From assembly GCA_000092065.1 (NCBI GenBank), contig CP000599.1: DNA of 64,000 nt; one strand, 5' to 3'. The translations under genes were made by a program, and so were the position numbers. Origin of the DNA: Ostreococcus lucimarinus (Eukaryota). The notes beneath the pieces are model-generated. The model saw nothing but the letters and a program-made list of their open reading frames with translations. It did not search any database and was not told the origin of the DNA. This document shows, piece after piece, positions 13,468 to 64,000 of this stretch (position 1 is the first letter of the stretch; each line of letters opens with the position of its first letter).

Positions 13468-14247
13468 TCACCCCCCGTTCGGATCGTCCCGCGTCTTGAT
13501 CACCCCGTACGCGCTCGAGAACGCCAAAAACCCCCCCACGAAGGGCGTGAAGAACGGATACAGCCGCTCGCTCACGAACCCGTCCACCGCCTCCGGCATC
13601 TTCCCGAACGCGCTCACCCCCAAGACGACCCCCAAAACGAATATCACGCCCACGTACGCGAACAAAAACGTCACGTACGCCTCCTCGGTCTCCTGCCCCA
13701 TGGTCTTCTCGCGCTTCCCCAGCAGCGCGTCCACCGCCGGCGAGTCCACCTCCACCGTCGCGCGTCGCGTCGTCTTCCCCCGTCGTCGCTTCGACTTCGA
13801 TCGCGGTTCGTACGCGAACGCACGCGGTTCCGCGCCGTCGCGTTGTGCGTCTTCGCGTCGCGCGTCGTCGACGTCGTCGTCGCGCGTCGCGTCGTCGTCG
13901 TCGTCGCGCTGTTGTTCCGCCCACGTCTTCTTCGCGCAGATTCGCGTCGCCGGCGGTCGACGCGCCGTCGTTGGACGTCGCGCGTCGACGCGACGTCGCG
14001 AGTGTGCGTCGGCGCGAGCGCGCGCGAGGATTCGCGTCGCCATCGTCGCGAAGAGCGGTGCGACGTCACCGCGGGCGTCCGCGTCAAGCGATGGATCCGG
14101 CCGCGCTCTAAACCCTAGACGACCGATCGAGATGCGACGACCGATCGCGACTCGACCGCGTCGGACGCGGCGACCGCGAATGCAAACACATCCCACGCGC
14201 GCGGTGTGTTGTACGACGACGATATCGTCGTCGTATAACACACCCAT
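13468..14247 (-). CDS. Hypothetical protein with two C-terminal transmembrane helices (start uncertain; possibly ATG at 14043)
   Basis: C-terminus EAYVTFLFAYVGVIFVLGVVLGVSAFGK...FVGGFLAFSSAYGVIKTRD. The N-terminal 60 aa are low-complexity read-through. Confidence 0.3.
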   Translation of the reverse strand: MGVLYDDDIVVVQHTARVGCVCIRGRRVRRGRVAIGRRISIGRLGFRARPDPSLDADARGDVAPLFATMATRILARARADAHSRRRVDARRPTTARRPPATRICAKKTWAEQQRDDDDDATRDDDVDDARREDAQRDGAEPRAFAYEPRSKSKRRRGKTTRRATVEVDSPAVDALLGKREKTMGQETEEAYVTFLFAYVGVIFVLGVVLGVSAFGKMPEAVDGFVSERLYPFFTPFVGGFLAFSSAYGVIKTRDDPNGG

Positions 14248-15240: not shown

Positions 15241-15660
15241 CGGTGGCGCCTCTTCGACCTCGTCCTTCGCAGTCGTCATCCCCGCGGGCGAGGGCGCGCG
15301 ATTCACGTCCGCCCCCGTCGACGCCATGGACGCACGCGACGCGATCTGCGCGCCGCAATTCCTCCGCCGGAAAACCGGAGGACTCTAAACCCTACTAAAA
15401 ATCGAGTTTCAGAAAAGGCCCGTTTTTGGAAGCATGCTAGTGGAACCTGAGTAAAAAGTGGCCAATTCTACAGTCCATGCTCGTACGGTTTTTCATAATA
15501 CTTTATATCATTATCATATATACCGAATGTCCGAACACACACACACACCATCGCATCGCTAGGGGTGCTTGAATCCGGTATTGGGAATTTCCCAATACGT
15601 ATCGGCGTATTGGGCCGGTATCGGCCGAATGTCCGAACGCGTAAATCGTATGGGCAAACA

Positions 15661-15736
15661 GTATTAAACAGCTGATACGAGCTGATACGAGCTGATACGA
15701 GCTGATACGAGCTGATACGAGCTGGTACGAGCTGGT
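15661..15736. repeat. 10-bp microsatellite (CGAGCTGATA)n, about 7.5 copies (last copies GG variant)
   Basis: gctgatacgagctgatacgagctgatacgagctgatacgagctgatacgagctggtacgagctggtacg read directly. Confidence 0.9.
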
Positions 15737-15764
15737 ACGACGGTGGCGAATCGAATCGAATCGA

Positions 15765-16170
15765 CACATCGCACTCGTCACGCGTATTATACGACAATAC
15801 ATACCGTACAACACCCCACACGAATACCATCAATCATCAATCAATCGCGCGCACGACAAAAGACATCGACGCGCGTCCGACGACGCATCGCCACGACCCA
15901 CCACACGGCACTCGTCACGCGTATTATACGACAATACATACCGTACAACACACCACACGAAACCCATCAATCAATCGCGCGCACGACAAAAGCCATCGAC
16001 GCGCGTCCGACGACGCATCGCCACGACCCACCACACGGCACTCGTGACGCGTATTATACGACAATACATACCGTACAACACACCACACGAAACCCATCAA
16101 TCAATCGCGCGCACGCACCGTTCGAAATCGCGCCTTAGCGCGTCATTCCCGTCGACGCGCCGCGTCATGT
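15765..16170. repeat. Minisatellite: 3 tandem copies of a 130-146-bp unit in a divergent promoter
   Basis: Unit ctcgtcacgcgtattatacgacaatacataccgtacaacacaccacacgaaacccatcaatcaatcgcgcgcacgacaaaagccatcgacgcgcgtccgacgacgcatcgccacgacccaccacacggca starts at about 15765, 15911 and 16041. Confidence 0.85.
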
Positions 16171-20496: not shown

Positions 20497-20996
20497 CGCT
20501 TCGTCGCGAACGCGCGTTTAATTTTTACCCCTATTGAGCGATCCCGCGTGCTCTTCGACCGATTCCCACGCGTGCCGCGTCGTAAAAATACCCGCTTTCG
20601 GGCGATCGCGCGCTCGCGAAAGTTTCGCCGCGCGCGCGACCGCGGTCGTCGTCGCGAAGCGATTTTTGCCCCGAATCCAACGAATTCGCGCCCTGGAGAT
20701 GGATGGATCGTCGAGCGCCCTCGATCGGCGACGCTTTCGAGCCGCGAGACGCGCTCGACGGCGCGACGCGGCTCGAAGCGCGAGCGATCGCGCGCGATCG
20801 CGTCGTCGATCGCGCGCGGCGCGGTCGCGAATCCGCGATCGGCGTCGGCCGTCGTCGAATCCGCGGCGCGATGTGGCGACGATCCGGGCCGCGTCGGCGG
20901 TTTCGCGTGCTTCTATACGATGTTTTAGTGCGTATTACGGTATCGAAACGCCCCGTTCGTTTACGTACACGTCGGCGCGTCGCGTCGACGGGCGTC

Positions 20997-21190
20997 GCGG
21001 ATTCTCCTACTGATGGGTGTCGCGGGGCGTTTTATGCGGTACTGAGTATCGTATTTTAGGTATACGTCATTCGATGCGCGGCGCGCGCATCGCGGATCCG
21101 CGTGTGGTCGCGGATTCTCCTACTGATGGGTGTCGCGGGGCGTTTTATGCGGTACTGAGTATCGTATTTTAGGTATACGTCATTCGATGC
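20997..21190. repeat. Tandem duplication, about 111-bp unit x2, upstream of the LSD1-like gene
   Basis: gcggattctcctactgatgggtgtcgcggggcgttttatgcggtactgagtatcgtattttaggtatacgtcattcgatgcg occurs twice. Confidence 0.85.
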
Positions 21191-21653
21191 GTGGAGCGCG
21201 CATCGCGAACGCGCGGCGGCGCCGCGGATCCCGACGCGCGGCGCGACCGGCGCGGCGCGGCGCGGCGTCGAGCGTCGGAACGCGCGTCTCGCGTCGACGC
21301 GCGGGTCCGCGACTTCCGACGCCGCGCGAACGGCGCCGCGGACGCGGGATCTCGAACGCGACGACATGCCGTTTCAAATCTACGTCGCGGGACAGCGCCT
21401 CGCGTCGGACGCGGTGCTGAGCGACGCGTGGCGAGCGAGCGACGCGCGCGCGCGATTGAAACGACCGAGCGCGACGGACGCGGACGGCGACGACTCGGAC
21501 GGCGATGGGCGGGACCGCGGGACGCGGGACGACGGGGCGAGGGCGAAGCGCGCGGCGCGGTGACGGACGAAGACGGACGACGCGCGAGCGCGCGCGCGAA
21601 AAGGGTTCGAATGGGATGTATTTTTTTTTAATGATCAAACGAAGATGGATTCG

Positions 21654-23998: not shown

Positions 23999-24514
23999 TC
24001 GGTGGTGTTCGTATACGTATGTTTATGTGTGTGTGTGTTTTACGTATTGAAGGGGTCTGAGTGCTATATACAAGGGTTTAGAGCATAGCCCGGCCGCGCG
24101 CGCCGTCGCGGCGTCGCGGCGTCGTTCGCGCGCGCGGGGGGCGTTCGCGTCTTTCCATACATGGGAGTCGGATGACCTCGTATACGTGATTATACATCGT
24201 ATATTGGGCGCGTGAAGCGGTGTATACGTATCGCGTGCGCGGTGCCCCGCCCCGGCCGCGCGCGCGCGCGCGAGACGCCGGCGCGTCGATCGAGACGCGC
24301 GCGCGCGAACGCGTCGATCGAGACGCGCGCGCGAACGCTCGACGCGCGCGACGGTCGATCGACGACGCGCATTTGGGCGATCGACGACGCGCGACGAACG
24401 CGCGAATCGACGGGCATCGGGAATCGCGAACACCATAGCGATTGCGAGCGATCGCGAACGAGGCGTCGCGAACGAATCGCGTGCGAATCGCGAGGCGGCG
24501 GTTCGAGGCGCGCG

Positions 24515-39601: not shown

Positions 39602-39642
39602 CGCGCGCGTCGCGCCGTGCGGGCGGCGACGGCGACGCGCGT

Positions 39643-40026
39643 CCGCGCGAAGGGTCTCGCGCGCCTTCTAATACGTGACAAAACGTCGTACTGTAGGAAG
39701 ACGACGGGCATGTGTGCGACGCGCCGTGCGGTCGTCGTCCGCGCGAACCGTCTCGCGCGCCTTCTAATACGTAATAAAACGTCGTACTGTAGGAAGACGA
39801 CGGCCATGTGTGCGACGCGCCGTGCGGTCGTCGTCCGCGCGAACCGTCTCGCGCGCCTTCTAATACGTAATAAAACGTCGTACTGTAGGAAGACGACGGC
39901 CATGTGTGCGACGCGCCGTGCGGTCGTCGTCCGCGCGAACGGTCTCGCGCGCCTTCTAATACGTGACAAAACGTCGTACTGTAGGAAGACGACGGCGATG
40001 TGTGCGACGAGGGGAAAGAAGCGCGA
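39643..40026. repeat. Minisatellite: 4 tandem copies of a 96-bp unit in a divergent promoter
   Basis: Unit tctcgcgcgccttctaatacgt(g/a)a(c/t)aaaacgtcgtactgtaggaagacgacgg(g/c)catgtgtgcgacgcgccgtgcggtcgtcgtccgcgcgaac(c/g)g begins at about 39655, 39751, 39847 and 39943. Confidence 0.9.
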
Positions 40027-41246: not shown

Positions 41247-42554
41247 TCAACGCCGCCGCCCGCGGCGCGAGAAGAGTCGACGCCAGATGGATTTTTTTCG
41301 TGACTTTTCCCGCGCTCCCGCGTCGTCGTCACGACGCTCGGGTGTGATCCACGGATGTTTCAACGCCTGGCGCGCCGTCAACCGCTCGTTTGGATCGCGT
41401 TCGAGGACGCGTGTCATGAAATCTGTAAAGCCGTCGTCTCCGAGCCGTGCAATTTCGCCGAGGTCTACGCTTTCGCGAAGCACTTTTTGGTACGTATCCC
41501 ACGCACCGTCGGCTTGGTAAAAGTACCGTCCCGTCGCTAACGCGTGAAGCGTCATTCCGAGCGCCCAAACGTCGGCTTTGAACCCATCGCACGGTTCGCC
41601 CTCGCAACACTCGGGGGCGGTGAACGCGGGCGTTCCCGGAGTTTTCCCCACGAATTCGTGCGTCCGCTCGAGCTCCGACGCGTTGGCGTTCGTTTTCGCG
41701 TTCGCTTTTGCTTTCGCCCGCGCCTTCGCCTCGCGTCGACTCCCCACTACGATCGGTTTCACGCGTGTCGCGCACCCGAAATCCCCGAGCTTGTACGCGC
41801 CGCTCGCGCTCGCGAAGATGTTTTGCGGCTTGACGTCGTAATGCGCGATGTTTCGCGCGTGACACGTCCGCAGCGCGCGCAAAATATCCCGCGCGATCGC
41901 CTTCACGTCCGATAAATCAAACCTCTCGAACGTGTCGCGCTCATCGTCCACCACGCTCCCGCGCTCGCAATATTCCATCACGATTTTCGCCGTCGACTCC
42001 CGCGCGTCGTTCACCCACTCGTACGCTTGCACCACGTTCGCGCACCGACACTCGCTCTGCATCCTTATCTCTTCCTCCGCCGCGTCCAACAGCGTTCGCG
42101 ACGATCCCACGCGCACGTTCGCCAATTTTCTTTTATTCAACTCCTTCACCGCGTACGCGTTCGCGCGCCCGCGCCCGCTCGTCGTCGTCGCCGTTTCCTC
42201 CCTCCCCGTCGTCCCCGTCGCCTCCGTCCCCGTCCCCGTCCTCGTCCTCGTCCCATCCGTCGTTTCGCTCTTTTCGCTCGCGTATTTGTACACCTCGCCG
42301 TACGCGCCTCGTCCGAGCGTCTCGCCTCGCGTCCCGTACGCGCGACGCATTCGCCTCGACGTTCGCCGCGCGCCGCCGCGCGCCGTTCGCCGACCGCCCG
42401 TCGCCGCGCGTCGTCCGCAGCACGTCCGCGCGAGGGCGTCGCTCGAGCTCGAGTCCGCGCTCGAGTCCGCGCTCGAGTCCGACGACGCCGTCGCGCGCGT
42501 CGGCATGGACGGTCGACGACTCGACGCGTCGCGTCGTGACGATCGCGGCATCGA
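41247..42554 (-). CDS. Ser/Thr protein kinase (non-RD: HYD catalytic loop); N-terminal start uncertain
   Basis: LGRGAYGEVYKY glycine loop, AVKEL, IAHYDVKPQNIF catalytic loop, LGDFGCA, TAPE, DVWALGMTL. The ORF extends to 42638 using a GTG. ATG candidates are at 42554, 42506 and 42350. Confidence 0.6.
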   Translation of the reverse strand, partial: SMPRSSRRDASSRRPSMPTRATASSDSSADSSADSSSSDALARTCCGRRAATGGRRTARGGARRTSRRMRRAYGTRGETLGRGAYGEVYKYASEKSETTDGTRTRTGTGTEATGTTGREETATTTSGRGRANAYAVKELNKRKLANVRVGSSRTLLDAAEEEIRMQSECRCANVVQAYEWVNDARESTAKIVMEYCERGSVVDDERDTFERFDLSDVKAIARDILRALRTCHARNIAHYDVKPQNIFASASGAYKLGDFGCATRVKPIVVGSRREAKARAKAKANAKTNANASELERTHEFVGKTPGTPAFTAPECCEGEPCDGFKADVWALGMTLHALATGRYFYQADGAWDTYQKVLRESVDLGEIARLGDDGFTDFMTRVLERDPNERLTARQALKHPWITPERRDDDAGAREKSRKKSIWRRLFSRRGRRR

Positions 42555-42637
42555 TCGGTGACGGGGCGTCGCGAAAAAGTCGGTCGGTCGGGCGGTCGGC
42601 GATGGATGTTCTGGTGCGTCGAATGCGTTCTCACGCA

Positions 42638-42658
42638 CCCTAAACCCTAAACCCTAAA
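42638..42658. promoter_or_regulatory. Interstitial telomere-like array (CCCTAAA)x3 = telo-box (AAACCCTAA) followed by an A9 tract, 5 nt upstream of the CXC gene ATG
   Basis: gcaccctaaaccctaaaccctaaaaaaaaaATGagt read directly. It is the C-strand orientation of the terminal TTTAGGG repeat. Confidence 0.85.
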
Positions 42659-42663
42659 AAAAA

Positions 42664-43929
42664 ATGAGTACATCTACGATGTACTCAAGTCCATCATCGC
42701 GCCACGGAATCGATCGCCGACGCGGACGGCGAATCGATCGCGTCGCGCGTCACGTCGCGTCGCGCGCGAAACGACGATCGCGCATGCGCGCGGGCGACGA
42801 CGCGATAGCGTCCGCGTCGCCGCGCTCGATCGCGGCGCGCGCTTCGACGCCGCGCGATTCGGCGTCGCAGAGAAAGCGGTGCAACTGTAAAAATTCAAAA
42901 TGTCTCAAGCTGTACTGCGAGTGCTTCGCGAGCGGGAAGTACTGCGACGCGTGCAACTGCGCGGGGTGCAAGAACAACGACGAACACGCGCACGAGCGAC
43001 AGTCGGCGATCGAACAGACGCTGGAGCGGAATCCGAACGCGTTTCGACCGAAAATCATCAATCAGACGACGAACGGGACGCTCGACGGCGCGGGCGCGGG
43101 CGACGGCGCGACGACGGAGGCGAGGCACAATCGTGGGTGTCACTGTAAACGGAGCGGGTGCTTGAAAAAGTATTGCGAGTGCTTTCAGGCGGCGATATAT
43201 TGCGTGGAACGGTGTCGGTGCGCGGAGTGTAAGAATTTCGAGGGGAGCGAGGCGCACGAGGAGGTGAAGCGAACGCACGGACCCGACGCGAGGTTTCACG
43301 ATCACGCGAGTGCGGTGGCGTCGCCGAGCCCGGGGCGGAGGAAGATGCTCGCGACGCAACAGACGATGAGCGGGCGCGAGGGCGGACACGCGCTCGTTCA
43401 GGCGTCGCCGAAGCGTGGAAATCAGAGGGCGTCGATGGAGAGCGATTCGAGCGGCGGCGGCGAACGCGGGGCGTCGTCGCGGTATCAGAAGCGCGCGCCG
43501 TCGCGCGAAGCGGTGTCGGTGCCGTTGATGCATAATCTGGTGCAGCAAGGCGCGGTGGAGGAACTGGCGCGCATTTTACTCTGCGTCGCGGATGAGACGA
43601 AGGCGTCGACGCCGAGCGACGGCGCTCGCGTCGGCGTCGCCGCCGTCGCCGAGCTCGCGGCGAACGCGACGAACGAACGTCACGGAAACGACGCGAAGGA
43701 CGATGATGAAACTTTAGACGATTTGATGTGCGACGAAGCCGCGGATGAGATTCGAGGCGCCGCGAAAGTCGCCGCGAGCCACGCCGCCGCCAAAGCCGCG
43801 TACGCCGACCGCGAGCGCGCGCTCTTGGGCGAGCTCGAGCGCGTGGTTTCGCGCCTGACGCACAACGCCAAGGCGCGCGTGGAGCACGCGAAGAAGCAGC
43901 AGCGCGCGGTGAAGCAGCGCGTGGCGTAG
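42664..43929 (+). CDS. Tesmin/TSO1-like CXC-domain protein (LIN54 family, DREAM/MuvB-type DNA binding)
   Basis: Two CXC modules: [36 protein letters not shown] and [37 protein letters not shown]. The spacer RNPNAFRPK is typical of this family. Confidence 0.7.
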
Positions 43930-60918: not shown

Positions 60919-63594
60919 ATGGCGCGCGCGCACGAATCCGAGTCCGCGACGACGTCCGCGCTGTCGCCGACGCGATACGCGCACGAGGAGCGCGTGTTGC
61001 GCACGCCGCACGACGTCGAGGCGTGGTGCGACTACCTCGACGCGATCGACGCTGGCGACGAAAATGACGACGACGACGACGCGTCGCGCGCGATCGATCG
61101 GTACATGATATACGAACGGGCGATAAAACATAACGCACACTCGTATAAACTGTGGTACCGGTACCTCACCGAGCGCGCGCGACGCGATCGAGGCGCGCGA
61201 TTCGACGACGCCGCGCGAGCGAAGACGCGCGCGTGCTTCGAACGCGCGCTGACGACGATGCATAAAATGCCGAAGATATGGATAATGGCGATAGAATACG
61301 TGAGAGATGCGTGCGCGTTGATCACGGAGACGCGAAGGATGTGCGATCGCGCGCTGCGGGCGTTACCGGTGACGCAACACGAACGCGTGTGGGCGCCGTA
61401 CGTGGAGTTTATTCGGCGAGACTTTGTGCCGATTTCGACGGCGCGGCGAGTGTACAGGCGGTATTTGAAATTCGAGCCAGGGCACGCGGAGGAGTACGTC
61501 GAGTTTTTGCGTAAAAAGCAGTGCCACGGCGAGGTGGCGAGTAAACTCGCCGAACTCGTCAACGACGACAGCTTCCAGTCGCTCGCCGGTAAGTCCAAGC
61601 ACGCGTTGTGGCTCGAACTGTGCGACGTCGTCACCAAGCACCCGCCCTCGTCGGACGCCGCGGACGAGACCGATCGCGCGCTGGACGTCGACGCCATCTT
61701 GCGCGGGGGAATTCGAACGTTCACAAACGAGGTCGGGAGGTTGTGGACGGCGCTCGCGGATTATTACATTCGCCGCGGCTTGTTTGAAGCCGCGCGAGAC
61801 GTGTACGAGGAGGGCGTCGAGAGCGTCTCCACCGTGCGCGACTTTTCGTTGATTTTCGATGCGTACGCGCAGTTCGAAGAGTCCGTCATCAGCGCGAAGA
61901 TGGAAGCCGGCGAGGACGAAGACGAAGACGAGGACGCGGACGACTCGTCGACCGCGGATCCGTCGATCGACTTCGTGTTGCGCGACGACTCGTACGCGAG
62001 CGTGGAGCTTTTGCTCGCGCGATTAGAACACCTCATGGAACGGCGACCGGAATTGCTTTCGTCGGTAATGCTGAGACAAAACCCGCACAACGTGCACGAG
62101 TGGGAAAAGCGCGTGGCGCTGTTCGAAGGACAACCGACGAAGCAAATCTTGACGTACACGGAAGCCGTCAAAACGGTGAAACCGGAGCTCGCCAACGGAC
62201 GCGTCGCGTCGCTTTGGGTCGGATTCGCAAAGTTTTACGAAGACCACGGAGACTTGGAGAGCGCGCAGACGGTGTTTGAGAAAGCCGTGGGCGCCGAACG
62301 CGCGGCGACGTTCAAGACGGCGGACGATTTAGCGACGTGTTGGTGCGAGTACGCAGAGATGCATTTGCGGCACAAAAATTACGACGAGGCGTTGGCGGTG
62401 ATGCGTCGAGCGACGACACCGCGCGAAGGCTTCCGCGAACCTCGCACGGCGGCGGAATACGACGCGCTGCCGGCGCGAGACAAGGTTTTCAAATCGCTCA
62501 AGATGTGGACGTTGCGCGTCGACTTGGAAGAATCCTTGGGCGACTTGAAGTCGACCAAGGCGGTGTACGACGAGATGATTTCGATCAAGGTGGCGACGCC
62601 GCAGATACTGTTGAACTACACGCACTTGCTCCAAGAGCACAATTTCTTTGAAGACGCGTTTCAAGTCTTCGAGCGCGGGGTGAATAGTTTCAAATTTCCG
62701 TACTCGCGCGAGCTGTGGGCGGCGTATCTCACGCTCTTCGTCGCGCGTTTCAAGGGCTCGAAACTCGAGCGCGCGCGAGACTTGTTCGAGCAAGTGATTG
62801 AAGAAGCCCCGGCGAAGGAGTCGAAGCAATTTTTCTTGGCGTACGCCAAACTCGAAGAGGATTACGGCCTCGCCAAGCGGGCGATGGACGTGTACGAGCG
62901 CGCCGTCAAGCGCGTGCCCGTGGACGAGAGACTGGGGGTGTACGACGTCTACGTGGCCAAGGCGATGGAATTTTTCGGCGTCGCCAAGGTGCGCGACGTC
63001 TTCACGCGCGCCGCGGACGACGGCGAGCTGTCGAACGACGTGAGCAAGACGTTGACGACTAGGTTTGCGGAGTTTGAGCGCAAACTCGGCGAGATCGATC
63101 GCGCGCGCGCCCTGTACGCGCACGCGTCGCAGTTTAGCGATCCCACAAAGGATGCAGATTTCTGGTCGACGTGGCACGAATTTGAGGTTCGTCACGGCAA
63201 CGAAGAGACGTTTCGAGAAATGCTTCGAATCAAGCGCGCCGTCGCCGCGAGCTTTTCCGACACCCACTTCAACGTCTCCGTCGTCGCGCCGGACGTCGAC
63301 GCGGCGAAGAAGACGACGGATTCGGGCGACGCCATGGCGCGACTCGACGCCGCCCACGAGGCGCACGCGGCGGAGAACGCGGCTTCCATGCCCGGCTTCG
63401 TGCGTTCGCACGTCGAAGGCGCGTCGCCGCCCGCCGCCGCCGTCGCTGTCGACGCGGGCGACGACGCCGAGATCGATTTGGACGCCCTGGAAGCGCCCGC
63501 CGGCGTGTTCTCCGGCGTCAAGCGCGACGCCGCCGCCGCCGGTCTCGGCGCCATGGCGCGATTTAAGAGCGCGCGCGCGAACGATGACGAGTAG
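60919..63594 (+). CDS. SYF1: Pre-mRNA-splicing factor SYF1/XAB2 (HAT-repeat protein)
   Basis: EERVLRTPHDVEAWCDYL, YERAIKHNAHSYKLWYRYL, KIWIMAIEYV, RVWAPYVEFI, YRRYLKFEPGHAEEYVEFL and further tandem HAT repeats. 891 aa from the ATG at 60919. Confidence 0.85.
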   Translation: MARAHESESATTSALSPTRYAHEERVLRTPHDVEAWCDYLDAIDAGDENDDDDDASRAIDRYMIYERAIKHNAHSYKLWYRYLTERARRDRGARFDDAARAKTRACFERALTTMHKMPKIWIMAIEYVRDACALITETRRMCDRALRALPVTQHERVWAPYVEFIRRDFVPISTARRVYRRYLKFEPGHAEEYVEFLRKKQCHGEVASKLAELVNDDSFQSLAGKSKHALWLELCDVVTKHPPSSDAADETDRALDVDAILRGGIRTFTNEVGRLWTALADYYIRRGLFEAARDVYEEGVESVSTVRDFSLIFDAYAQFEESVISAKMEAGEDEDEDEDADDSSTADPSIDFVLRDDSYASVELLLARLEHLMERRPELLSSVMLRQNPHNVHEWEKRVALFEGQPTKQILTYTEAVKTVKPELANGRVASLWVGFAKFYEDHGDLESAQTVFEKAVGAERAATFKTADDLATCWCEYAEMHLRHKNYDEALAVMRRATTPREGFREPRTAAEYDALPARDKVFKSLKMWTLRVDLEESLGDLKSTKAVYDEMISIKVATPQILLNYTHLLQEHNFFEDAFQVFERGVNSFKFPYSRELWAAYLTLFVARFKGSKLERARDLFEQVIEEAPAKESKQFFLAYAKLEEDYGLAKRAMDVYERAVKRVPVDERLGVYDVYVAKAMEFFGVAKVRDVFTRAADDGELSNDVSKTLTTRFAEFERKLGEIDRARALYAHASQFSDPTKDADFWSTWHEFEVRHGNEETFREMLRIKRAVAASFSDTHFNVSVVAPDVDAAKKTTDSGDAMARLDAAHEAHAAENAASMPGFVRSHVEGASPPAAAVAVDAGDDAEIDLDALEAPAGVFSGVKRDAAAAGLGAMARFKSARANDDE

Positions 63595-63812: not shown

Positions 63813-64000
63813 TTTAGGGTTTAGGGTTTAGGGTTTAGGGTTTAGGGTTTAGGGTTTAGGGTTTAGGGTTTAGGGTTTAGGGTTTAGGGTTTAGGGTTTA
63901 GGGTTTAGGGTTTAGGGTTTAGGGTTTAGGGTTTAGGGTTTAGGGTTTAGGGTTTAGGGTTTAGGGTTTAGGGTTTAGGGTTTAGGGTTTAGGGTTTAGG
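63813..64000 (+). repeat. Telomere: (TTTAGGG)n, about 27 copies, G-strand 5'->3' running into the window end
   Basis: Perfect tttaggg repeats from 63813 to the last base. Orientation places the chromosome terminus at the right edge. Confidence 0.95.

Follow-up and report, generated by a model that had tools for sequence, protein, structure and literature searches.

Three tandem copies of the telomeric unit CCCTAAA lie in the short 5' spacer between a divergent protein kinase gene and a Tesmin/TSO1/LIN54-type CXC gene of Ostreococcus lucimarinus. We consider it probable that they are a genuine short interstitial telomeric sequence (ITS), carried by a derived indel allele, and that natural populations are still polymorphic for it. 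The window analysed is a stretch of 64,000 nucleotides, and the features referred to below are:

41247-42551, minus strand: protein kinase ORF (Pfam PF00069), divergent, non-RD (HYD), first in-frame ATG at 42551
42636-42678, no strand assigned: 43-nt segment, most likely derived, made up of CA, (CCCTAAA)3, AAAAAA and a 14-nt inverted copy, delimited by alignment with L016, L018, L019 and L021
42638-42658, plus strand: interstitial telomeric sequence (CCCTAAA)3, in the window sequence and identical in the independent assemblies L001 and L102
42659-42664, plus strand: A6 homopolymer filler between array and inverted copy, part of a 9-A run, absent from array-less alleles
42664-42666, plus strand: in-frame upstream ATG, apparently new, where the A-run meets the inverted copy, absent from array-less alleles
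42665-42678, plus strand: inverted, putatively templated copy TGAGTACATCTACG, a 14/14 reverse complement of the flanking, presumably ancestral CGTAGATGTACTCA
42665-42687, no strand assigned: perfect palindrome (10 bp, 3 nt, 10 bp), TGAGTACATC-TAC-GATGTACTCA, formed by the inverted copy and the retained flank, 100% complementary
42784-43929, plus strand: CXC gene (Tesmin/TSO1/LIN54-type) from its probable conserved start, codon 41 of the 42664-43929 ORF
63813-64000, plus strand: terminal telomere (TTTAGGG)26.9, 100% identity, at the 3' end of the window

The sequence gcaCCCTAAACCCTAAACCCTAAAaaaaaATG is present in the window, with three exact CCCTAAA units at 42638-42658. The first three bases of the nine-A run at 42656-42664 belong to the third unit and the last is the A of an ATG at 42664, leaving a gap of five A between array and ATG. 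The initial annotation had counted three telo-box units and an A9 tract in front of the CXC ATG; the three CCCTAAA units and the run of nine A are indeed there, but only two full AAACCCTAA 9-mers occur (at 42642 and 42649), the first CCCTAAA unit being preceded by GCA. The telo-box core AAACCCTA(A) matches the telomere unit and is found in the array. The array units match the organism's own telomere repeat, (TTTAGGG)n at 63813-64000, where the window ends at the true chromosome end; the array lies 21.2 kb from that end and in the opposite orientation to the terminal telomere (C-rich strand on plus). As had been noted from the start, it is the only internal array of at least two telomere units in the window and is less than 100 bp from the divergent kinase, the distance to the first in-frame ATG of the kinase ORF (42551) being 87 bp. 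By chance, AAACCCTAA would be expected 0.02 times per window, and a two-unit 14-mer with up to two mismatches 0.06 times.

The array is carried by three independent assemblies, namely the window, L001 (Logan SRR20439966) and L102 (Tara Oceans ERR868448), which are unlike one another at flanking SNPs and in the copy number of a 12-bp repeat and are therefore separate genotypes. At the array site four other contigs, conspecific or sister (L016, L018, L019 and L021), align with intact flanks as TCACG-TATCGTATCGTAG-ATGTACTC, with 13 nt of unrelated sequence, TATCGTATCGTAG, in the position of the array; L016 is array-less in both copies of its local duplication. The 43-nt segment stands in place of these 13 nt, a net gain of 30 nt, and the distance to the CXC domain differs between the alleles by 30 nt, in agreement with that gain. 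Carriers and non-carriers differ by 0.09-0.42% over 3.3 kb downstream, a divergence by which they are taken as one species, and their haplotypes are intermingled; the three carriers differ by 0.24% among themselves downstream. L021, which is diverged by 3.7-3.9% from the other alleles over the same 3.3 kb and serves as the outgroup, is also without the array. By these alignments the array is a presence/absence polymorphism segregating in one species and not a fixed promoter element; four closely related contigs lack it entirely. Because L021, at 3.9% divergence, has no array, we infer that the array-bearing state is most likely derived, by insertion and not by deletion, a polarity read from one outgroup contig and seven informative alleles, with the metagenome contigs being consensus assemblies.

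The junctions of the 43-nt segment carry changes of the end-joining type: a 13-nt deletion, the CA and A6 fillers and the 14/14 inverted copy of the flank. DNA folding of positions 42625-42700, which include the palindrome stem, gives -12.3 kcal/mol (z = -8.5). The 3-5 nt between the palindrome arms are inverted relative to the putative ancestor; hairpin opening, self snap-back and sister-chromatid annealing at GTAC were each considered and none reproduces an inverted spacer in that position, and the mechanism is therefore named here only as a "templated inverted copy". Before the array stands a single additional A (42637) that keeps the register of the repeat and is absent from the putative ancestral sequence, and at the presumed ancestral break site itself no bases in phase with the telomere unit can be seen. 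A BLAST comparison with the telomere junction of this chromosome found no donor for the whole insert: the match covers only 24 nt (repeats and A5) and does not extend further, which lends no support to copying of the insert from the chromosome's own telomere junction. Several other contigs are also rearranged here, since L016 has a tandem duplication of about 115 bp at the array site, L018 and L019 join at the site to a repeat resembling window positions 15520-15740, L021 has a different gene upstream of it, and L017 and L020 start exactly at the junction. Judged from these contigs, the array site is a fragile site.

The identities given initially to the two genes are borne out, the CXC gene by a Pfam match to PF03638 with two CXC stretches and the kinase by a match to PF00069 together with a catalytic loop that reads HYD and is therefore non-RD. 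Their 5' ends are another matter. The array had been placed 5 nt before the CXC start codon in a "bidirectional promoter" given as 110 bp; this interval, of 112 bp, is based on the first in-frame ATGs of long GC-rich ORFs, and the ATG at 42664 lies inside the insert; to judge from the array-less alleles, it is a product of the insertion itself. The ATG at codon 6, where public gene calls (P0001) begin, is ACG in L021, with a TAG before it. The GC3 of the CXC ORF is 0.57 over codons 1-40, 0.87 over codons 41-70 and 0.77-0.87 downstream overall, and CXC orthologues have short N-termini. Taking together the insertion-made ATG, the loss of the codon-6 ATG in L021, the low GC3 and the short N-termini of orthologues, the real CXC start is probably 42784, which would put the array 126-146 bp upstream of the start codon. 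An exact look-up of the 421-aa ORF gave no match. On the kinase side the true start may lie further inside the ORF, near 42351, because orthologues are 315-322 aa long. There is a lesson for annotation here, namely that ORF-based 5' ends over-extend genes in this GC-rich genome, and that the "start codon" on the array side would be a by-product of the insertion.

The array-bearing allele most likely goes back to a double-strand break in the CXC 5' spacer, inside or beside TATCGTATCGTAG, which error-prone end joining would have mended with the loss of 13 nt. Snap-back or template-switch synthesis would have copied 14 nt of the right-hand flank in inverted form; the bottom-strand 3' end of the right-hand fragment would then have gained a short T/A homopolymer and three telomere repeats, by the action of telomerase or by the copying of a telomeric template; and ligation to the left flank through the 2-nt filler would have been the last step. 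The product would possess a new in-frame upstream ATG, a 10-bp hairpin and, should the alga possess a Myb factor that binds double-stranded telomere repeats, a new putative binding site, which makes the array-bearing allele a plausible case of the birth of a telo-box. Two observations fit this route less well. A simple hairpin or snap-back does not invert the 3-5 nt between the palindrome arms. Moreover, a related lineage (L103) has TCACG-AAACCCTA-N26-TATCGTATCGTTG, with a telo-box after the same TCACG and before the otherwise unique TATCGTATCG; such an arrangement fits an ancestral telo-box at this exact spot that was deleted in the array-less alleles.

Telo-boxes are in fact found in the kinase-CXC spacer of several lineages. 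A single telo-box-like element (TAGGGTTTA or AAACCCTA) is present there in L002, L008/L022, L104 and L103. AAACCCTA/TAGGGTTT occurs four times in the 127 kb of non-redundant sequence sampled from other Ostreococcus-like lineages and alleles, each time in this spacer (L002, L008, L104 and L103), a placement with a chance probability of p = 4.6e-7, or 2.9e-4 when only non-coding DNA is counted. The part of the spacer best conserved between L104 and its sister lineage L008/L022 is GGT-TAGGGTTTA...TGTTTGAATTC. Read along the CXC sense strand, the element shows its G-strand in L002, L008 and L104 and its C-strand in L103 and the window; copy number and position also vary among lineages, and a telo-box is lacking from this spacer in L021, in L024 and in the conspecific array-less alleles. 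Searches with the CXC and GLF proteins gave no protein named as Ostreococcus at NCBI. L002 and L008 are distinct from O. tauri, with which they share about 70% nucleotide identity in a common gene. In O. tauri chromosome 20 (L096, the AP-3 delta locus) there is no AAACCCT in 22.9 kb, a stretch that stops a few kb short of the CXC region. In the sampled Ostreococcus-like DNA the 8-mer is rare and not a general promoter word. Its four-out-of-four placement may point either to a locus-specific telo-box role or to a recurrent break site at the kinase-CXC spacer.

Two side observations concern the same motifs elsewhere. In 70 other CXC-homologue loci AAACCCTA has nine matches, six of them in sense orientation and at most 1 kb upstream of the tblastn match; one of these six lies inside predicted coding sequence, and we give the matches no evidential weight. 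The window also has three CTCTAAACCCT sites (14106, 15383 and 24073). They were considered as ends of a dispersed repeat, an idea rejected when BLAST against the window revealed nothing shared between their spacers beyond the motif; AAACCCT is found neither in the O. tauri locus nor upstream of AP-3 delta in L097, and the sites are therefore species-specific.

One may also consider that the array is a functional telo-box, through which a telomere-repeat-binding Myb factor regulates the CXC gene, the kinase or both, and which selection has kept across Ostreococcus and possibly across green plants. We regard this as possible while leaning against it; such a function would not conflict with an origin of this copy by break repair. 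In its favour are the exclusive placement of the 8-mer in this spacer across 127 kb, the presence of TAGGGTTTA in the best-conserved spacer block of L104 and L008/L022, and the fact that the array-bearing allele is neither rare nor brand new, its carriers being 0.24% apart downstream. A TCX6 transcript of Arabidopsis thaliana, moreover, has AAACCCTAA in its 5'UTR, although this coincidence has a prior of about 11% (PMC2576244). Against it stand the conspecific array-less alleles and the lack of a spacer telo-box in L021 and L024, the lineage-dependent orientation, copy number and position, and the failure of the motif to behave as a general promoter word in the DNA sampled. Partner motifs are also missing: the spacer (42352-42784) contains no site II (TGGGCY), no TEF box and no TATA. 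In Arabidopsis, telo-boxes are positioned at -60 to +140 around the transcription start (PMC2576244). The initial idea of a telo-box upstream of a DREAM-type CXC gene thus survives in that a perfect telo-box-type sequence does lie in the kinase/CXC 5' spacer, but not as a conserved feature of the species.

Regulation by TRB proteins, which had been suggested, finds no such support. These proteins are reported to arise within Streptophyta (Klebsormidiophyceae) and not in chlorophytes such as Ostreococcus (PMC10167121), and with TRBs reported only from streptophytes, TRB binding to the array is unlikely. A bolder reading is that a telo-box has been caught at birth, in that telomerase-assisted break repair would have made a new cis-element at a locus where at least four lineages kept or regained one; we put it forward as speculation, with the chances clearly against it. 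If true, it would amount to direct before-and-after evidence for the Gaspin-Lescure origin model, and to a regulatory link between telo-box and DREAM-CXC genes in green plants that is older than the TRBs and acts via another telomere-binding Myb factor.

A different history, which we judge distinctly unlikely, would start from an ancestral telo-box that replication slippage expanded from one unit to three, with rearrangement of the downstream flank, while the array-less haplotypes and L021 lost the box by clean deletion. The ancestor of this species and L103 would then already have had TCACG-AAACCCTA...TATCGTATCG. A three-way alignment of the window, L016 and L103 does keep the order TCACG, telo-box and TATCGTATCG, the last of these is confined to the upstream regions of the L103 and window lineages, and most other lineages have a telo-box. 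Nevertheless, such a history calls for two events plus either a polymorphism maintained across a 3.9% split, where within-species divergence is about 0.2%, or identical deletions in parallel. The registers are also unlike (TCACG-AAACCCTA versus TCACG-CA-CCCTAAA), and slippage leaves both the A6 filler and the inverted 14-mer unexplained. Insertion by break repair remains the reading we prefer.

That the array is the relic of a chromosome end, left by an ancient telomere-telomere fusion, a healed terminal deletion or a subtelomeric exchange, is highly improbable. The locus is subtelomeric, 21 kb from the telomere, and the C-strand orientation is that expected of a left-hand telomere of the distal 21-kb segment. 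However, the gene order kinase, CXC, LRR, PX-Ank, GLF and fatty-acid hydroxylase is kept in at least four other lineages and in this species' own array-less alleles, the array has just three perfect units and is not of the degenerate head-to-head kind, and the flanks of the empty allele are contiguous; conserved synteny and the empty allele essentially refute such a relic. Chance occurrence or an assembly artefact, such as a chimeric read joining telomeric sequence, has nothing but the shortness of the array to recommend it and a negligible probability, being refuted by expected counts of 0.02-0.06 per window and by a 43-nt segment identical in three independent assemblies from different data sets.

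Presence or absence of an inserted telomeric array within one species is rarely documented, and here wild populations of a very small haploid alga contain both alleles, with the insertion in the 5' spacer of a gene. Ostreococcus can be transformed, a promoter element having been characterised in this way (PMC2850359). With co-existing alleles, a manipulable genus and a position in a 5' spacer, three questions can therefore be put to natural alleles: whether a newly inserted telomere repeat acts as a promoter or 5'UTR element, which protein reads it in a lineage from which TRBs are reported to be missing, and whether telo-boxes originate through telomerase at promoter breaks.

Polymerase-theta-type end joining and short template-switch mutations give templated inverted insertions. 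The exact 14-nt inverted adjacent copy, the perfect hairpin and the small deletion resemble this class, whereas their combination with telomeric repeats and an A/T tract sets the present allele apart. There is also a close likeness to the ITS class described by Nergadze, Giulotto and colleagues in primates, rodents and horse (PMC2246262, PMC7215372). These short arrays are reported to be inserted in one step at break sites, together with deletions, random filler and inverted duplications (PMC7215372). In the horse, about 29% of insertions are complex (deletion, filler, inverted flank duplication) and array-bearing and array-less alleles occur in one species at five heterozygous loci, a polymorphism that the authors state had been undescribed before and that none of 2,504 human genomes displayed (PMC7215372). 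Shared features are the few perfect internal units, the empty counterpart with conserved flanks, the apparent one-step insertion with short deletion, filler and inverted flank duplication, and the two kinds of allele within a species. The present case differs in that the organism is a unicellular, haploid green alga whose TTTAGGG repeats are of the plant type, the alleles come from ocean metagenomes rather than individuals, and the site is a very short 5' gene spacer rather than anonymous DNA; in-register nucleotides at the break are not evident here.

With the plant telo-box (AAACCCTA[A], bound by TRB1-5; PMC3022908, PMC10167121, PMC4924339) the array has in common an identical sequence, a location in a gene 5' region near the start codon, and a gene of the TCX5/6-type CXC class, whose Arabidopsis relative TCX6 has a 5'UTR telo-box. 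In contrast, the present element has three tandem units instead of one, has not reached fixation in the species and is accompanied by neither a site II nor a TEF partner; its gene is not of the translation-machinery type, and the sampled Ostreococcus-like DNA has few copies of the motif while about 11% of Arabidopsis genes carry a telo-box (PMC2576244). From the way motifs are distributed in Arabidopsis and rice, Gaspin, Rami and Lescure proposed that telo-boxes arise when telomerase works at free 3'OH ends within promoters and error-prone repair follows, a process in which homopolymers are gained as well (PMC3022908). The Ostreococcus allele is similar in the gain, apparently by repair, of telomere units and a homopolymer tract in a 5' region; a role for telomerase would be an inference here, and, unlike in that model, the before and after alleles can both be seen.

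The region 42000-43300 of the window reads ...GTTCTCACG CA CCCTAAA CCCTAAA CCCTAAA AAAAAA TGAGTACATCTACG ATGTACTCAAG..., and the following features bear on its interpretation.

Features of the array locus and of the chromosome end (window coordinates)
41247-42551, minus strand: protein kinase ORF (Pfam PF00069)
42636-42678: derived segment of 43 nt in place of 13 nt, from the alignment with array-less alleles
42638-42658, plus strand: three exact CCCTAAA units, read directly from the sequence
42664-43929, plus strand: CXC protein ORF (Pfam PF03638, two stretches)
63813-64000: perfect terminal telomere, (TTTAGGG)26.9, at the 3' end of the window

The 9-mer AAACCCTAA occurs exactly twice in the array (at 42642 and 42649), against 0.02 copies expected per window. 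A search with the two-unit 14-mer, allowing up to two mismatches (0.06 matches expected), revealed no second internal array in the window, the only other internal match being a single telo-box-like element at 14106 with two mismatches. The three telo-box units of the initial annotation are thus real and non-random, and they do form the sole interstitial telomeric array of the window, as it had stated. Its identification of the neighboring genes also holds: the CXC protein, whose closest named homologues are plant TCX5/6, has two PF03638 stretches, and the kinase has an HYD catalytic loop, i.e. it is a non-RD kinase. The perfect terminal telomere places the window at the right end of a chromosome, with the array 21.2 kb from that end and in the opposite orientation. 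The last gene (60919-63594), a SYF1/CRNKL1-type splicing factor by Pfam, has its stop codon a mere 220 bp or so ahead of the first telomere repeat, leaving practically no subtelomeric repeat zone. Genes are dense and introns few in the window, ORFs with high third-position GC covering about 80% of it; the gene order agrees with the right part of Ostreococcus tauri chromosome 20 (contig L096), and the AP-3 delta of the window is 81% identical to that of O. tauri and 82-88% identical to metagenome proteins. These matches indicate an Ostreococcus-like alga of the Mamiellophyceae, distinct from O. tauri.

Contigs of relatives were retrieved via the CXC and GLF proteins. An identical array segment was observed in three independent assemblies, namely the window, L001 (Logan, SRR20439966) and L102 (a Tara Oceans metagenome contig), which are told apart by SNPs in their flanks and by how many copies of a 12-bp repeat they have. 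In L016, L018, L019 and L021, four contigs sharing these flanks, the array is missing and the sequence is TCACG-TATCGTATCGTAG-ATGTACTC. Two others, L017 and L020, start exactly on the junction, as expected of an assembly graph that meets a heterogeneous site. In the 3.3 kb downstream, differences between carriers and non-carriers amount to 0.09-0.42%, with the two types intermingled and carriers 0.24% apart among themselves (metagenome contigs being consensus sequences), which indicates that both alleles exist in one species. The nearest outgroup, L021 (3.7-3.9% divergent), also lacks the array. With no more than seven informative alleles and a single outgroup contig to compare, the simplest view of the array is a derived insertion that would have been segregating for some time. 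A caveat for insertion polarity is contig L103, in which a box stands after the same TCACG and before the otherwise unique TATCGTATCG.

Judging from the aligned contigs, the 5' spacer of the CXC gene is, in this species, a hot spot of structural variation.

Structural variants at the CXC 5' spacer
L016 2995-3225: tandem duplication of about 115 bp with the array-less site inside twice, neither copy having the array
L018 1-125 and L019 1-60: junction to a repeat resembling window 15520-15740, reversed
L021 3300-3940: LRR-like gene upstream in place of the kinase

Within the 5' part of the kinase ORF (42440-42480), the window has one copy more of the 12-bp repeat GCTCGAGTCCGC than L001 and L016. 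In another lineage, an alignment of the close relatives L008, L022 and L025 revealed about 17 nt directly 5' of the TTAGGGTTTA box (L008 5663-5690) that are wholly different, the spacer outside this patch being nearly identical. This hypervariable patch lies beside a telomere-like motif.

The derived segment comprises, in order, CA, (CCCTAAA)3, AAAAAA and TGAGTACATCTACG. Its final 14 nt match, in exact reverse complement, the ancestral CGTAGATGTACTCA adjoining the site, and the inverted copy together with the retained flank creates a perfect 10-3-10 palindrome (inverted-repeat entry I16); the predicted fold of 42625-42700 has -12.3 kcal/mol (z = -8.5). The best-supported reading is that the array is a short interstitial telomeric sequence from error-prone break repair, segregating in wild populations. 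A break in the unstable CXC 5' spacer would have been repaired in an error-prone manner with insertion of a short telomeric sequence, the processed 3' end of the right-hand fragment being extended with T's and telomere repeats and then presumably joined to the left end. The bottom-strand order of the parts (flank, inverted copy, T-run, G-strand repeats, TG, left flank) is that expected if the right-hand 3' end was extended before joining. We infer that telomerase took part in the insertion; an attempt to reconstruct one unique repair pathway did not yield one.

The initial annotation had placed the array beside the CXC ATG, in a 110-bp bidirectional promoter. Gene models here are ORF-based, and the ATG at 42664 joins the last A of the filler to the TG that opens the inverted copy, that is, it was generated by the insertion. 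In array-less alleles a TAG stands before the next ATG (codon 6) of the CXC ORF, a codon that in L021 is ACG. GC3 is 0.57 in codons 1-40, 0.87 in codons 41-70 and 0.77-0.83 further on, and CXC orthologues begin 15-20 residues ahead of the first CXC domain. Taken together, these observations make 42784 the most likely conserved start, which would put the array 126-146 bp upstream, in either the 5'UTR or the core promoter. The kinase start is uncertain as well, since its orthologues have 315-322 aa vs. 434 aa in the window. With both ORF starts doubtful, the 110-bp promoter is to some degree an artefact of ORF extension.

The annotation had also suggested regulation by telomere-repeat-binding proteins, the telo-box being an established TRB-bound promoter element in plants. 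This interpretation finds only partial support. The order kinase, CXC, LRR, PX-Ank, GLF, hydroxylase was recovered in several other lineages, and four other Ostreococcus-like lineages each have a single telo-box-like element between the kinase and the CXC gene, in varying orientation.

Single boxes in the kinase-CXC spacer
L002 5548: tcTAGGGTTTAta, G-strand on the CXC sense strand
L008 5695 and L022 1896: ggTTAGGGTTTAca, G-strand on the CXC sense strand
L104 3163: TAGGGTATAGGGTTTAGAG, G-strand on the CXC sense strand
L103 188: tcacgAAACCCTAcc, C-strand on the CXC sense strand

In favor of an element at this locus, all four occurrences of the 8-mer AAACCCTA/TAGGGTTT in 127 kb of non-redundant DNA from other lineages and alleles are these spacer boxes (chance placement p = 4.6e-7, or 2.9e-4 when non-coding DNA alone is counted), and between L104 and its sister L008/L022 the motif plus TGTTTGAATTC is the best-conserved block, the rest of the spacer aligning poorly. 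However, some alleles of the species lack the array, a scan of the spacer for site II, TEF and TATA motifs found none beside it, copies of the 8-mer are rare in the sampled Ostreococcus-like DNA, and a streptophyte origin is reported for TRB proteins (PMC10167121). No telo-box lies in the spacers of L024, L021 or the array-less alleles, and AAACCCT is absent from 22.9 kb of O. tauri chromosome 20. The spacer boxes fit a locus-specific element that is kept or regained by selection, and they also fit a recurrent break site repeatedly given telomeric filler; the sequence data do not separate these two explanations.

A metagenome contig (L033) proved to be a TCX6 transcript of Arabidopsis thaliana without introns, 99% identical to P0014; TCX6 belongs to the plant family that the CXC gene of the window resembles most. 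Its 5'UTR has a canonical AAACCCTAA at 97-105, 249 nt ahead of the ATG; since a telo-box is found close to the transcription start in about 11% of Arabidopsis genes (PMC2576244), this box, taken alone, is weak evidence. In 70 further eukaryotic CXC-homologue loci, six of nine AAACCCTA matches are in sense orientation and at most 1 kb upstream of the tblastn match (L055 403, L074 283, L090 587, L076 3055, L089 598 and L033), these being raw counts. The L089 match falls inside a predicted coding sequence, and the L055 site reads AAACCCTACCAAAAAAA, resembling the window's array and A-run.

The window has three copies of the 11-mer CTCTAAACCCT, vs. zero in 100 shuffles, as well as several tandem repeats.

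Telomere-like 11-mers and tandem repeats in the window
14106-14116, plus strand: CTCTAAACCCT
15383-15393, plus strand: CTCTAAACCCT
24073-24083, minus strand: CTCTAAACCCT
15670-15740: 10-bp minisatellite AGCTGATACG, 7.1 copies
15771-16115: 130-bp tandem repeat, 2.6 copies, 95% matches
20994-21207: 113-bp tandem duplication, 1.9 copies, 98% matches
39640-40009: 96-bp tandem repeat between two genes, 3.9 copies, 96% matches

The sites at 15383 and 24073 lie within 5' spacers, some 55-75 bp away from a start codon; the 14106 site falls in what the ORF prediction makes the 5' end of a minus-strand gene, whose more plausible ATG, near 14043, is about 65 nt downstream of the site. All three have CCGG within a few nt on the G-strand side, and comparison of their flanks found no likeness beyond the motif and CCGG. 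Conservation of these sites was not found, AAACCCT being absent from the O. tauri locus and from upstream of the AP-3 delta gene of L097, and the adjacent genes have no Pfam match. The CXC-spacer box of L104 has the same extended form as CTCTAAACCCT. The minisatellite and the 130-bp repeat lie inside a long spacer (15328-16166) that precedes a GATA-type zinc-finger gene, and sequence related to this spacer adjoins the CXC gene in L018 and L019. The repeat at 39640-40009 yields spurious long ORFs with repeated peptides in several frames, and the duplication at 20994-21207 overlaps a weak 103-aa ORF without a Pfam match.

In mammals, telomeric repeats inserted at repaired breaks can show deletion, filler and inverted duplication of the flank; in the horse about 29% of telomeric insertions are complex in such ways, and allelic presence/absence has been reported (PMC7215372). 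The array allele likewise has a deletion, filler and an inverted flank duplication, and it agrees with the proposal of Gaspin, Rami and Lescure on how telo boxes arise (PMC3022908).
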